UHGV virus genome: UHGV-2038699
DNA length: 25,477 nucleotides
Strand: one strand, 5' to 3'
DNA from: a virus
Shown here: positions 5,102 through 25,477 of the stretch, in pieces
Position numbering within the stretch: position 1 is the first letter of the stretch
Layout of the letters: every line of letters begins with the position of its first letter
Notes under the pieces: generated by a model
What the model was told of the DNA's origin: nothing
The model's input: only the letters and a program-made list of their open reading frames with translations
Database searches by the model: none
Made by a program: the position numbers and the translations under genes

Positions 5102-5200
5102 TCACCACCAGCGTATAGCGCTAATAACGCTTGACAGACCGAATAAAAAGAACACGGCCCAGATGAGGAAGAATTTCCAGTTGGGTAGTTTTTCGCCCAT
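5102..5200 (-). CDS. Small hydrophobic protein, 32 aa (MGEKLPNWKFFLIWAVFFLFGLSSVISAIRWW), putative single-pass membrane peptide
   Basis: Not in the ORF track (below its 60-aa limit). ATG at 5200 with GGGAG RBS 9 nt upstream; stop 3 nt before the W start; one predicted TM helix. Confidence 0.4.
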   Translation of the reverse strand: MGEKLPNWKFFLIWAVFFLFGLSSVISAIRWW

Positions 5201-5274
5201 GACTCGCAACTCCCGTATCAGTTTGCTAAAATTAATCACATATTCTCCCTTGCTATCCTCAAGGTGCAGAAAGT

Positions 5275-5312
5275 AAAAAGCCCCGAAGTGTTAGCGCACC
5301 CGGGGCTTTTGT
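5275..5312. terminator. Bidirectional intrinsic-terminator-like hairpin between spike V and the small ORF
   Basis: GCCCCG...CGGGGC stem (5280-5285 / 5301-5306) flanked by an A-run on one side and a T-run on the other. Confidence 0.5.
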
Positions 5313-5326
5313 CTGTTTGGTAGTTT

Positions 5327-6067
5327 TTAATTAGGCGCGGTAGTATTCCCGCTGCCATTCTGCACACCGCCATGGGTATGCTGGATGAGGCTCTTTCCTC
5401 CAGCCTTCACATCGTTAGTCACCGTCACCGGCCCAAGCATCGTCGCAGTACCGCCACTTTCGCCCATTCCCTGAGACAGATTGCCATTAATCGTTACGTT
5501 GCCGTTCAGCGTGATAGTCGGGGATGTGATTGTCGTTCCACCTTCAGCCGTAGCCGTGAGCTGGCCCGGTGTTTGAACGGTGATGTTATGTCCTGCGGCA
5601 ACCTCTACGAACGCCGCACCATCATCGGTTCGCAGCTGCGCGGCGCTGGTACTGATACCGCTGATTTTCTGTGCTTGCGACTGCGGGCCAACGATGGCGA
5701 ACGCATCAGATAAGTCATGCTGTCGCGGATCGACGGTCTCCTGAACGCCGCCGCTCTGCCACCAGAAATCGATGCAACGGTCGGCAAAGATCAGCAGGCA
5801 CTCGTCGCCTTCTTTTACCGGAAAGGTCAGCGTGCAACCGCCGCCGCGCGGGAAGATAACCGGCACATCCACCAGCGGTTTTAATTCGGTGGAGCCATCG
5901 CCAACAATACCGCGAAGCGCTACCTCTACTGTGCAGGTAACAGTGTCAGGATCGAACGACTGAATGATGCCGGGCATCGCTACGCGCATCTGGGTAGACA
6001 CCGAATCGGCAATGGCCTGCGCGGTCTGCTGCTCACCCCCGATCTGTGATTGAGTTGGAATTGGCAT
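5327..6067 (-). CDS. Baseplate spike / assembly protein V (gp5-like OB-fold N-terminus, beta-helical C-terminus)
   Basis: N-terminal region (GIIQSFDPDTVTCTVEVAL...VPVIFPRGGGCTLTFPVKEGDECLLIF) matches the phage baseplate V family; C-terminal repetitive TITSPTITLNGNVTINGN and an HTHGG motif typical of spike tips. Confidence 0.75.
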   Translation of the reverse strand: MPIPTQSQIGGEQQTAQAIADSVSTQMRVAMPGIIQSFDPDTVTCTVEVALRGIVGDGSTELKPLVDVPVIFPRGGGCTLTFPVKEGDECLLIFADRCIDFWWQSGGVQETVDPRQHDLSDAFAIVGPQSQAQKISGISTSAAQLRTDDGAAFVEVAAGHNITVQTPGQLTATAEGGTTITSPTITLNGNVTINGNLSQGMGESGGTATMLGPVTVTNDVKAGGKSLIQHTHGGVQNGSGNTTAPN

Positions 6068-6078
6068 AAAACCCCCAT

Positions 6079-6101
6079 AAAAAAACCAGCCGAAGCTGGT
6101 T
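6079..6101 (-). terminator. Intrinsic terminator-like hairpin (CCAGC-cgaa-GCTGG followed by U7 on the minus-strand transcript) immediately upstream of the V RBS
   Basis: Stem 6086-6090 / 6095-6099, then a run of 7 A on the plus strand (6079-6085), i.e. U7 on the minus transcript; the V RBS (GGGGG) starts 2 nt after the U-tract. Confidence 0.55.
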
Positions 6102-6289
6102 TGGTATCAATTATCTCTTAGTAACTAAGCTACATCAGTGTGAAGTAAGGCTTTTCCGCTGCAATGGCACACATTCACAAGGTGTATTAGGATATGTTTG
6201 CAACAAGTAAGCATTGAAAATCAATTTCAGCCATGAAGCCGCCATAGAGTGGACCTGCACCATCGCATTATTGACTACAGGAGTAACAA

Positions 6290-6580
6290 ATGGGATTTAG
6301 ATTTCGTAAAAGAATCCGGATTGCGCCCGGACTCGCGATCAACATTAGTAAAAGCGGAGTAAGCACTTCAATTGGTGGTAAAGGTTCCACCATTAACATC
6401 GGAAAAAAAGGCGTAAAGATGACAAATGGCCTTCCCGGCACGGGGCTGTCGCATACCACTAACCTTTACTCTCCCGGGAAATCGACAGAAAAAAAACAAC
6501 TTACTCATAAGCAAAAAATAATTAGAAACATCCTGTTCGTAATTATTGTGTTTATTATAATTAAAGCTCAATATTTTTGA
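6290..6580 (+). CDS. DUF4236-like small membrane protein (N-terminal MGFRFRKRIRIAPGLAINISKSGVSTSIGGKG motif, C-terminal TM helix)
   Basis: ATG at 6290 with CAGGAG RBS 6 nt upstream; opposite strand to all structural genes; its own terminator follows; AT-rich relative to flanking genes; C-terminal hydrophobic segment ILFVIIVFIIII. Confidence 0.65.
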   Translation: MGFRFRKRIRIAPGLAINISKSGVSTSIGGKGSTINIGKKGVKMTNGLPGTGLSHTTNLYSPGKSTEKKQLTHKQKIIRNILFVIIVFIIIKAQYF

Positions 6581-6585
6581 CGCAT

Positions 6586-6617
6586 GCCCGCCTATCTGGC
6601 GGGCTATTTTACTTTTC
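6586..6617 (+). terminator. Intrinsic terminator of the DUF4236-like gene
   Basis: GCCCGCC-tatct-GGCGGGC stem-loop followed by TATTTTACTTTTC, 6 nt after the stop codon. Confidence 0.65.
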
Positions 6618-6954
6618 GGCAGTCGTATGTTGCATACTGACGCGGCGAATCCATGCTGGCTTGCAGCCACTGTGCGTTGAGAATGGCTTTGCCGTTGCGC
6701 TTGATGTACTCAAGCCCAACCCAGCGGCCGGGTTGATTAGTTGCAACCGTCCATTCCATCTTGAGATTTTGATAATCTTCCTTGGCTTTCAGAAAGGTCA
6801 TTTTCTGGTTTTCTGGCTTTACACCATTAATATGCATAAAACCATCATTACCTGCGGTGAGGCGATATGGCCCGCATTGGGTATCAGCCATTGCAGTTGA
6901 AGCTCCGACCAACGAAAGAACGGCTCCGCAGATAACATTCCTAATTTTTGTCAT
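6604..6954 (-). CDS. Secreted/periplasmic protein of unknown function, 116 aa, cleavable signal peptide, two Cys
   Basis: Starting at the ATG at 6954: MTKIRNVICGAVLSLVGASTAMA|DTQCGP (n-region K/R, hydrophobic core, AMA cleavage motif). Convergent with the DUF4236-like gene. The ORF track extends it to 7014, but that would overlap the hub gene. Confidence 0.6.
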   Translation of the reverse strand: MTKIRNVICGAVLSLVGASTAMADTQCGPYRLTAGNDGFMHINGVKPENQKMTFLKAKEDYQNLKMEWTVATNQPGRWVGLEYIKRNGKAILNAQWLQASMDSPRQYATYDCRKVK

Positions 6955-6955
6955 A

Positions 6956-8020
6956 TCACACCTGTACTTTTTGGAGCGTCGACTGACTATATAATTCACG
7001 ACTGCCACGCGCAAAGCACATCAAATCCATGTACCACGCCTGACCTCTGGTGTCGCCAGTATAGTCGATAGCTTTGACGATATAAACGCCATCCGTCGCA
7101 ATGCTGGCAGCCTGTGACGTCGTACCGGTCAGCACACGGTTGCCATTCTCTTCAGTTTCGGTGATACGCCCGGGCGACTGTGCGATTTCGCTATTACCGA
7201 GCGACGCGCGGTACACCGAAGCCTGATCGAGCTGGATAAGACCATTAATGCGGATGTTTGGGTTTATCAGGCACCGCACGTTTACGCCGCCGCCCATCGT
7301 CTGTTGCGGCATACCAATCAGGCCAGTATTGGCATTCAACACAATGGCTTCGTGAATATATTTATCCTCCGGCACCATCTGGACCTGACCATCCACCAGC
7401 TGCCATGTCGCTTTGCACTGCGCTGCAATATTATCCATCACGTTACGAGTGGATGAGTAAATCGCGCGGCCACGAGGAAACACGGTATCAGGAAAATCGC
7501 CGGTAATGCCCTGTGTCACGCCGAACACGTTGAAATCCTGCATCGTCGCCCGGTGCAGATCCGCAACGGTATAGCCAGCGGCAAGCGTAGTGATGGTAGT
7601 CGCGTAGAGGAACGCTTCATGATCTCCAATAGCCTGAATCAACACCCAGGAATCGGTAATGTTGTCCTTCCCGGTTACGGTAAAGCGAATATCACCGTCA
7701 AAAATCAGGCCGTAGTTCTGACCGTTCACCTGCCCTATCTGGTCTGGTGAAATCTCTCGGGCGACGCCGACCTGGCTCGCATCAACATCCGGCGCTATAC
7801 CGTCATACCCGGCAATGATGCGAATTTTGGCAAACTCCTGCCCCAGTATCTTGTTCGTGGTATCGGTCGAAAGGTTGTAAATTTTCACGTTCGCCACGCG
7901 CGGCCAGCGTGTGTCTGCCCACTCGATCTGGAACGTGACCTTAAAGTCAGACAGGGAAACGCCCTGCCCGTTCTGGTCCAACAGTTGCAGCTCAAAATGG
8001 CGCATCCAGTTAAGAGACAT
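6956..8020 (-). CDS. Baseplate hub / tail protein (P2 gpD / Mu gp44-like position)
   Basis: 354 aa, located between the tape-measure-proximal genes and spike V; assignment is by size and synteny only. Confidence 0.45.
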   Translation of the reverse strand: MSLNWMRHFELQLLDQNGQGVSLSDFKVTFQIEWADTRWPRVANVKIYNLSTDTTNKILGQEFAKIRIIAGYDGIAPDVDASQVGVAREISPDQIGQVNGQNYGLIFDGDIRFTVTGKDNITDSWVLIQAIGDHEAFLYATTITTLAAGYTVADLHRATMQDFNVFGVTQGITGDFPDTVFPRGRAIYSSTRNVMDNIAAQCKATWQLVDGQVQMVPEDKYIHEAIVLNANTGLIGMPQQTMGGGVNVRCLINPNIRINGLIQLDQASVYRASLGNSEIAQSPGRITETEENGNRVLTGTTSQAASIATDGVYIVKAIDYTGDTRGQAWYMDLMCFARGSRELYSQSTLQKVQV

Positions 8021-23499: not shown

Positions 23500-23650
23500 G
23501 GCGTTACCTGCTACTTCGAAATGAACCTTTGCCGCACAGGAAACCAGCCCACCGAGGCTCGCCAGCACTAACTGGTATCCTCAAAGGCCCATTCCAAAGG
23601 GTCAGGTTCGGTGGTTATTGTGCGCTGCGGTGCGCGGTGAAATACCTATA

Positions 23651-23676
23651 CAAAAACGCCCCGCATCTGCGAGGCA
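23651..23676 (-). terminator. Intrinsic terminator-like hairpin downstream of the lysis cassette
   Basis: On the minus transcript: GCCTCGC-agat-GCGGGGC followed by GUUUUU, about 40 nt after the Rz stop. Confidence 0.45.
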
Positions 23677-23717
23677 TTTTCCTGAAAGTCACTTGTTAAA
23701 TTTCAGTGAAATTAAAA

Positions 23718-24935: not shown

Positions 24936-25177
24936 GTCTTACCCCCAATAAGGGGATTTGCTCTATTTAATTAGGAATAAGGTCGATTACTGATAGAACA
25001 AATCCAGGCTACTGTGTTTAGTAATCAGATTTGTTCGTGACCGATATGCACGGGCAAAACGGCAGGAGGTTGTTAGCGCGACCTCCTGTCACCCGCTTTC
25101 ACGAAGATCATGTGTAGAAGGCCGCAGCATAACTATCACTGATGAATTCAGGATAGCCAGTGGATACGGCTCAGTTA

Positions 25178-25253
25178 TGGTGCTGGTTAACGGACTTGAA
25201 CCGCTACCCATTCGCTTACAAGGCGACTGCTCTACCATTGGAGCTAAACCAGC
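25178..25253 (-). tRNA. tRNA gene, anticodon UGU (Thr) by manual folding
   Basis: 76 nt with encoded CCA; 7-bp perfect acceptor stem, D-loop with GG, T-loop TTCAAGT, anticodon loop CTTGTAA. Confidence 0.6.
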
Positions 25254-25258
25254 ATGTT

Positions 25259-25333
25259 TGGCGGGACAGCGTGGGCTCGAACCACGATAAGAAGGTTAAC
25301 AGCCTTCCGTAATGACCTTTATACGACTGACCC
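25259..25333 (-). tRNA. tRNA-like gene, anticodon GUU (Asn) by manual folding; possibly degenerate
   Basis: 75 nt with CCA; T-arm CGTGG-TTCGAGC-CCACG; anticodon arm GAAGG-CTGTTAA-CCTTC; one mismatch each in acceptor and D stems. Confidence 0.45.
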
Positions 25334-25379
25334 AAATAAAAAAAGCCACCGTTGCAACTTAAGAGTCACTAACGGCAGC
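25334..25379 (-). terminator. Intrinsic terminator (tR'-like) immediately downstream of the candidate late promoter
   Basis: On the minus transcript: GCUGCCGUU...AACGGUGGC stem followed by U7 (plus-strand A-run 25338-25344). Confidence 0.5.
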
Positions 25380-25389
25380 TTACCTTCTA

Positions 25390-25419
25390 ATTATGGCTAA
25401 ATGGATAATTGCATGTCAA
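25390..25419 (-). promoter_or_regulatory. Sigma70-type promoter (candidate late promoter pR'), -35 TTGACA / 18-nt spacer / -10 CATAAT
   Basis: On the minus strand, TTGACA (25419-25414) and CATAAT (25395-25390); sits upstream of the tRNAs and lysis genes, where lambdoid phages carry pR'. Confidence 0.5.
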
Positions 25420-25477
25420 GGCTTTTAACAGCAACATGCTTAACTTTCTCAACACGTTTACGCATTTTGAAAGCATT

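Follow-up and report, generated by a model that had tools for sequence, protein, structure and literature searches.

The window analyzed here (the whole 25,477-nt stretch of virus genome UHGV-2038699) carries lysis, head and tail genes that all lie on the minus strand between 24935 and position 1, with tail-fibre genes near position 1; this strand is referred to below as the late strand. The genes for the baseplate hub and for the baseplate central spike V, the latter labelled 'phage baseplate assembly protein V' by NCBI in Escherichia coli relatives, are separated by a slot which in the window holds a gene for a 116-aa protein and a gene with a DUF4236 domain (Table 1). The GC content at positions 6100–7000 is 39–46%, compared with 53–59% in both flanks. 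The 116-aa protein has a signal-peptide-like N-terminus (MTKIRNVICGAVLSLVGASTAMA) and two cysteines, Pfam and PADLOC gave no match for it, and a role as a periplasmic factor for exclusion or conversion is conceivable. At about 100 related loci, its gene almost invariably opens the slot, and it is missing from loci that are free of cargo. The DUF4236 gene, which was unmatched in PADLOC, is located on the strand opposite to the late genes in 11 of 11 islands. Its own terminator and the stop codon of the convergent 116-aa gene overlap. A U-tract follows the terminator stem on the plus strand only and not on the late strand, so this terminator should not halt late transcription. The same convergent layout recurs in a divergent island of Serratia fonticola (L025). 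Between the DUF4236 gene and the hairpin that precedes V there are 188 nt without a recognizable feature. A consensus promoter scan detected no site in this spacer (6102–6289) on either strand and none between the hairpin and V, and a promoter of the DUF4236 gene could not be located in the spacer by eye.

Table 1. Positions of the genes and signals discussed in the text, listed in the direction of late transcription
Feature	Position	Strand	Evidence and remarks
3′ end of phage-21-type Q antiterminator gene	25397..25477	minus	99% identity to Sf6 gene 59 and BTP1 q
Late promoter PR′	25389..25419	minus	TTGACA-18-CATAAT with AATTATCC/ATTTAGCC; sequence match
tR′ leader terminator	25335..25380 (T-run from 25344)	minus	−20.2 kcal/mol, U7; overlaps region annotated as qut in Sf6
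tRNA-Thr(UGU) and tRNA-Asn(GUU), head of late operon	25178..25333	minus	Rfam
Post-lysis terminator, ahead of terminase and all head genes	23650..23683 (T-run from 23656)	minus	−19.8 kcal/mol
Baseplate hub gene, 354 aa, upstream border of slot	6956..8020	minus	phrog_196 baseplate hub, 1e-82; weak Pfam hub match
116-aa protein gene (phrog_3443), first gene of slot	6604..6954	minus	Start 1 nt past hub stop
Terminator of DUF4236 gene	6586..6604	plus	GCCCGCC UAUCU GGCGGGC and UAUUUUACUU
DUF4236 accessory gene, 96 aa	6290..6580	plus (opposite to late operon)	Pfam DUF4236, 1.8e-20; annotated in E. coli relatives
Intrinsic-terminator-like hairpin and U7 tract before V	6079..6102 (T-run from 6085)	minus	−11.3 kcal/mol; sequence, fold, pairing kept in relatives with compensatory changes
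GGGGG, Shine-Dalgarno-like, of V	6072..6076	minus	2 nt past U-tract, 4 nt ahead of AUG
Baseplate central spike gene V, 246 aa	5327..6067	minus	Pfam spike N-terminal domain, 1e-41; GpV Apex motif
Post-V terminator, directly after V stop	5271..5310 (T-run from 5279)	minus	−20.4 kcal/mol, U5
45-aa membrane-protein-like ORF, GTG start	5102..5239	minus	Same size and position as SEN34_23

On the late strand, positions 6102 to 6079 read AAACCAGC-UUCG-GCUGGUUU and run into seven U residues in total (6085–6079). In the core of the stem, CCAGC (6099–6095) pairs with GCUGG (6090–6086) and the loop is UUCG (6094–6091). An optional extension, in which A6102–A6100 pair with U6085–U6083, produces a stem of 8 bp with a GC core of 5 bp. 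Downstream of the U-run, the sequence continues with AU, the GGGGG of V, UUUU and the AUG at 6067–6065, so that 11 nt lie between the end of the U-run and the start codon of V. In relatives, GGAG or GGGG occupies the same place before V. The first-pass annotation had placed a hairpin with U7 at 2 nt from the ribosome-binding site of V, and its coordinates and description agree with the sequence. It had also called the hairpin a strong terminator. A 26-nt fragment that comprises the hairpin folds with −11.3 kcal/mol (z = −4.44), and none of 200 shuffled sequences folded equally well; the term is relative, as the other three intergenic terminators of the late strand reach approximately −20 kcal/mol. 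In a pattern and consensus scan, the hairpin ranked first among terminator-like sites of the late strand between 4500 and 8500. Over the late strand of the whole window, a hairpin of −10 kcal/mol or lower that is followed by at least seven T residues occurs twice (mean of 0.1 in 60 dinucleotide shuffles), and hairpins with T-runs of all kinds occur at five sites (1.7 ± 1.3 in dinucleotide shuffles). Folding of wider contexts of 66 and 223 nt was unremarkable (z = −1.0 and −1.4, respectively) and did not point to a structured leader, antiterminator or riboswitch. The GC-rich stem-loop followed by a U-tract, its intergenic position, and the preservation of pairing rather than of sequence are all those of a Rho-independent terminator.

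Conservation of the hairpin and turnover of the cargo

The comparison with relatives covered 160 loci that encode V homologs, drawn from viral contigs and a collection of species-representative genomes, in each of which V, the hub gene and the 116-aa gene were located. Upstream of the V homologs, 132 different stretches of 70 nt were distinguished in Enterobacterales genomes and viral contigs. A hairpin with a T-run is absent from all 19 regions (0 of 19) in which the hub–V gap is shorter than 40 nt; it is present in 12 of the 15 whose gap is 40–119 nt and in 91 of the 93 whose gap is 120 nt or longer (three of these 91 matches are doubtful, with the hairpin located 37–47 nt from the ATG). In the good cases, which represent about 100 distinct relatives with hairpin and T-run, the stem ends 15–23 nt ahead of the ATG of V, and the T-run is 5–9 nt long (6–7 nt in 88 of 104). 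This spacing is fixed across V identities of 52–100%. When 48 diverse sequences were aligned with MAFFT, 88.8% of the cells were paired, compared with 37–55% when the partners are slid. Five of the eight stem pairs have changed on both sides (CG, UA, AU and GC), 0 of 500 shuffles attained the observed score, and the same helix was predicted independently by RNAalifold. Part of the apparent covariation could reflect repeated replacement by non-homologous terminators. The conservation in relatives rules out a chance origin of the hairpin.

The hairpin is also present at loci that contain no cargo, in Salmonella, Pseudescherichia, Enterobacter, Buttiauxella, Rouxiella, Erwinia and Kalamiella; there the intergenic region comprises about 80–90 nt and is essentially the hairpin alone. 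In E. coli prophages, the hairpin and T7 stand immediately before a conserved ATGGRGTTTTTATG, with stems of either CCAGC/GCTGG or CCCGC/GCGGG, and the content between hub and V differs: DUF4236, a 53-aa protein, a pair of 70-aa and 185-aa proteins, or a Phd/Doc toxin-antitoxin pair that ends 58 nt ahead of V. Islands range from 0 to about 2.8 kb, and their ORFs fall into 64 clusters. Counted by strand, 145 cargo ORFs are on the late strand and 47 on the opposite one (44 and 9 clusters, respectively). As the cargo is mostly on the late strand, the hairpin is in most relatives also the physical end of the cargo transcription units. The observed architectures are hub and V abutting, hub-terminator-V, hub-116aa-V, hub-116aa-terminator-V and hub-116aa-cargo-terminator-V, the last of which is found in the window.

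Hairpins that are identical in stem and loop lie beside islands of varied size (82 to 1841 nt for the CCGCC/ACCC variant). When 50 pairs of loci with the same hairpin and different islands were compared, identity broke off 2–4 nt ahead of the GC core in 41 of them and was about 33% beyond that point. Only the CCAGC variant, which is the one in the window, is strictly tied to one cargo, DUF4236. The occurrence of identical hairpins beside different islands, together with the break at the foot of the stem, indicates that the hairpin is the first element of the V-side backbone. Judged from these comparisons of sequence, it caps a slot for accessory genes (morons), in which the cargo is swapped upstream of the stem. 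The genes in the slot resemble morons in being present or absent among relatives at this position and in their deviating base composition. They depart from the definition in that the terminator neither belongs to the inserted gene nor moves with it, and we therefore describe the hairpin as a backbone insulator that caps a cargo slot and not as the terminator of a DUF4236 moron.

A further motif, CCTGAYRTTTGATCAGTAA, lies directly 5′ of the hairpin at several loci (L004, L019, L025, L042, L072, L091, L109, L110, L129, L162 and phage yong1, in which it is at about 37680–37700 of L170). Each of its three frames has a stop codon (TGA, TGA and TAA), the loci carry different cargo, and their V identities are 54–97%. 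The motif is absent from the window.

Q module and terminators of the late operon

At its right end (25170–25477), the window has 99% identity to a segment that is found in Shigella phage Sf6 and in Salmonella phage BTP1. The Sf6 annotation of this segment lists the 3′ end of a phage-21-like Q gene, PR′, qut, tR′, tRNA-Asn and tRNA-Thr, with PR′ described as 'nearly identical to phage 21 late promoter'. The window includes no more than the final 81 nt of the Q gene, the ORF of which runs off its end. The promoter elements TTGACA-18-CATAAT are located at 25419..25390, and the AATTATCC/ATTTAGCC string at PR′ corresponds to the proposed Q-binding element (QBE) of phage L (PMC8022706). The order of a Q-dependent lambdoid late operon, with Q followed by PR′ with a Q-binding site and then by tR′, is thus found here. 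The late control region is mosaic: it is of the phage-21/Sf6/BTP1 type in the window, and of the lambda type (Q and PR′) in the closest E. coli prophage (L167, NZ_CP061754.1). The tRNA-like segment of the latter also differs, and its homology with the window resumes at about 25180. NZ_CP061754.1 was for its lambda-type Q and PR′ dropped as a guide to the Q of the window, and Sf6 and BTP1 were taken instead. The L167 prophage (3070230–3074143 for the locus compared) is integrated beside torS, which is the site that has been reported for prophage Gally of E. coli LF82 (10.1101/2022.10.28.514194).

All complete relatives are lambdoid. In SEN34 (Salmonella, Brunovirus) and yong1 (Hafnia), an annotated Q gene is located just upstream of the lysis genes, and both have the hairpin before V. 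Klebsiella phage Mulock, which also has this hairpin, encodes a hypothetical protein at the position of Q, followed by a leader terminator and tRNA genes. In Providencia phage PSTCR3, Q is present, hub and V overlap, and there is no hairpin. The presence of Q thus did not discriminate between relatives with and without the hairpin, and the case of PSTCR3 indicates that the hairpin is dispensable for this type of phage.

A dedicated scan of the late strand identified four clean intergenic terminators: tR′, the post-lysis terminator, the hairpin before V and the post-V terminator (Table 1). The post-lysis terminator is located between the spanin gene and the genes that lead to terminase, so that the packaging, head and tail genes of the operon all lie behind a terminator. 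The post-V terminator and the 45-aa ORF form one insertion between V and the next baseplate gene. Of 153 relatives, 134 have V and this next gene overlapping; the insertion, of 228–240 nt, is found in about 15 relatives, and two have the small gene and no terminator. Since the post-V terminator of the window precedes the 45-aa ORF, V is bracketed by terminators. It follows from the further terminators on the late strand that the late operon as a whole, and not only V, depends on read-through.

Possible functions of the hairpin

The distance of 11 nt between the U-run and the AUG leaves V without room for a promoter of its own, so transcription must reach it by read-through of the hairpin, as the first-pass annotation had stated. 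Of the two explanations that it offered, Q-type antitermination is supported by the context, i.e. by the Q 3′ end, PR′, qut and tR′ in the window and by the lambdoid relatives, including SEN34 and yong1 with their annotated Q. Its framing in terms of V and the island has to be modified: V does need read-through, but the hairpin belongs to the conserved backbone and is not specific to this island, and terminators also stand before the terminase and head genes.

Q-loaded polymerase 'ignores terminators', and complexes of the Q21 type generally block hairpin formation (10.1101/651190). In the lytic cycle, polymerase that is loaded with phage-21-type Q at PR′/qut would become terminator-resistant and would pass tR′, the post-lysis terminator, the hairpin before V and the post-V terminator, so that V and the downstream baseplate and fibre genes would be made. 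Polymerase without Q would halt at the hairpin before V. Such polymerase could come from cargo promoters (e.g. of a toxin-antitoxin operon), from cryptic promoters or from upstream in a repressed prophage. According to the classical description, a moron has a promoter and a terminator of its own and is expressed while the prophage is repressed (PMC3594210). For the terminators inside the late operon of phage L, it was stated that their roles 'are not known', and two roles were suggested, one of which is to stop spurious transcription that is not antiterminated (PMC8022706). The hairpin is probably a backbone Rho-independent terminator at a moron slot of a Brunovirus-like lambdoid myovirus prophage, which is read through by Q-loaded polymerase and insulates V. 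We infer termination activity, read-through and insulation as the selected function, the read-through from the mechanism of Q21 (10.1101/651190). The likeliest role of the hairpin is that of an insulator against the entry of non-antiterminated transcription into the baseplate genes. Counterpoints are that no credible late-strand promoter, and thus no moron promoter, could be demonstrated in the island of the window, and that DUF4236, its main cargo gene, is directed away from V. The cargo-free relatives also keep the hairpin, and blocking transcripts from the cargo is therefore not the whole reason for its presence.

In a more far-reaching version of this proposal, the hairpin would predate the cargo and would be kept by selection as a 'firewall and docking point', which would turn the hub–V junction into a safe harbor for accessory genes; we consider this possible but rather doubtful. 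If it were true, swaps of cargo would always be resolved at the foot of the stem, and constitutive transcription of the cargo would never enter the baseplate genes. Terminators inside Q-controlled late operons would then create moron hotspots and would not be baggage that is brought by the morons.

A different function would be attenuation, in which part of the late transcripts are ended at the hairpin even in the presence of Q, which would keep the mRNA dose of the V, wedge and fibre genes below that of the upstream head, sheath, tube and hub genes. The persistence of the hairpin in cargo-free loci and its fixed position at the hub–V junction would fit this role, partial termination has been named as a possible role of intra-operon terminators (PMC8022706), and the hairpin, at −11 kcal/mol, is weaker than tR′ at −20 kcal/mol. 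Attenuation is nonetheless unlikely, as complexes of the Q21 type generally block the formation of hairpins (10.1101/651190), a similar terminator also precedes genes that have to be strongly expressed, those for terminase and the major capsid protein, and relatives in which hub and V overlap do without the hairpin.

The hairpin could also terminate an unannotated late-strand transcript of the island, for which the candidates are a small RNA or small ORF at 6102–6289, an antisense RNA of DUF4236 from near 6571..6542 or an mRNA of the 116-aa gene from near 7086..7058. The constant association of the CCAGC stem with DUF4236 would fit this reading. A 42-aa unannotated ORF (6131–6262, minus strand) lies between the start of DUF4236 and the hairpin and ends about 35 nt before the stem, and two weak promoter-like sites are present on the late strand. 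These sites, at 7086..7058 and 6571..6542, are 9-of-12 matches, which are no commoner than in shuffled sequences, and no convincing sigma-70 promoter was found on the late strand of the island. The spacer at 6102–6289 is devoid of promoter-like sites, and the hairpin has the same position when the slot is empty. The 42-aa ORF is missing from the divergent DUF4236 island of Serratia and was dropped as a gene. In a search of the window at gathering thresholds, Rfam returned the two tRNAs only; sub-threshold matches at 6080–6162 to isrK, Trp leader and rsmX (23.4, 23.3 and 19 bits, against thresholds of 50, 41 and 56) were rejected, their permissive alignments being based on the terminator alone. 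The 42-aa ORF and the isrK and Trp leader matches are probably meaningless, and we regard termination of an island transcript as quite unlikely.

Stable intercistronic hairpins can stabilize or process mRNA in other operons, and the hairpin before V might likewise protect the 3′ end of the upstream mRNA or act as a 5′ stabilizer of V mRNA after cleavage. The second of these roles, which had been the other explanation in the first-pass annotation (a 5′-stabilizing or processing element), found no support in our analysis. The hairpin does adjoin the ribosome-binding site of V. A 5′ stabilizing hairpin of the ompA type is located at the extreme 5′ end of the mRNA, which requires a start or cleavage site just upstream; on the late strand, no promoter-like site was detected within 6102–6289, and no known processing signal was recognized just 5′ of the stem. 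The T-run of 5–9 nt is conserved together with the stem, and it is needed for termination and not for a stability hairpin, and the 223-nt leader is not unusually structured. A role in stability or processing is thus very improbable. Finally, the hairpin is most improbably a neutral relic of past moron insertions that has no function of its own and is tolerated as Q makes it invisible: some relatives manage without it and cargo-free loci could be deletion remnants, but compensatory changes maintain the pairing, the T-run is retained, the spacing to V does not vary across the range of V identities, and breakpoints respect the foot of the stem.

Comparison with known systems

For lambdoid late operons under the control of Q, a moron slot with an intrinsic terminator is a known and ordinary kind of arrangement, and the accepted picture of Q antitermination is unchanged by the insulating terminator that we propose. 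The hairpin provides a well-replicated example of an intra-operon terminator, with about 100 distinct relatives, covariation and empty slots as controls. The slot itself is a recombination-prone site of Brunovirus-like Enterobacterales prophages, occupied by toxin-antitoxin pairs, DUF4236 and secreted small proteins, and could be mined for genes of lysogenic conversion or defence.

In phage L, too, Rho-independent terminators are predicted within a late operon that has only one promoter, and this phage shares with the window the phage-21-type Q-binding element string and the tRNA genes at the head of the operon (PMC8022706). Its terminator follows the procapsid module, whereas in our case the terminator precedes V and evidence from conservation and covariation is added for one site. 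The logic of an insulator that is overridden by an antiterminator has been shown experimentally in Tn916, in which the terminator T1 keeps the genes of the element silent against read-in while the element is integrated, and the processive antiterminator canT of the element overrides it once the element is active (PMC11658703). Tn916 differs from the window in being an ICE of Gram-positive bacteria, its antiterminator is probably an RNA and not a Q protein, and there is no homology between the two.

In P22-like phages, too, an accessory region lies in a late operon with a Q-type antiterminator (gp23), directly upstream of an essential tail gene that would be reached only by antiterminated late transcription. 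Expression of the P22 tail protein is reportedly controlled by transcription termination, as described by Berget, Poteete and Sauer in 1983. The accessory region in question, the variable immI/ant moron region in front of the tailspike gene (PMC2629481, PMC8022706), would be the nearest functional parallel known to us. The virion modules are unrelated (a podovirus tailspike in P22-like phages and a myovirus baseplate spike here), and no sequence homology is expected.

The genes in the slot also have much in common with the morons of lambdoid phages, such as HK97 gene 15 in the tail operon, for which the concept was introduced by Juhala and Hendrix: these are likewise genes of lower GC content between conserved late genes, they vary among related phages, and they are followed by a factor-independent terminator through which the late operon is read (PMC3594210). 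In contrast to these morons, the terminator described here is linked to the downstream backbone gene V and is common to empty slots and to many cargos. It shows that an intra-operon terminator can be a conserved backbone element that caps a slot, and is not necessarily brought along by each moron.
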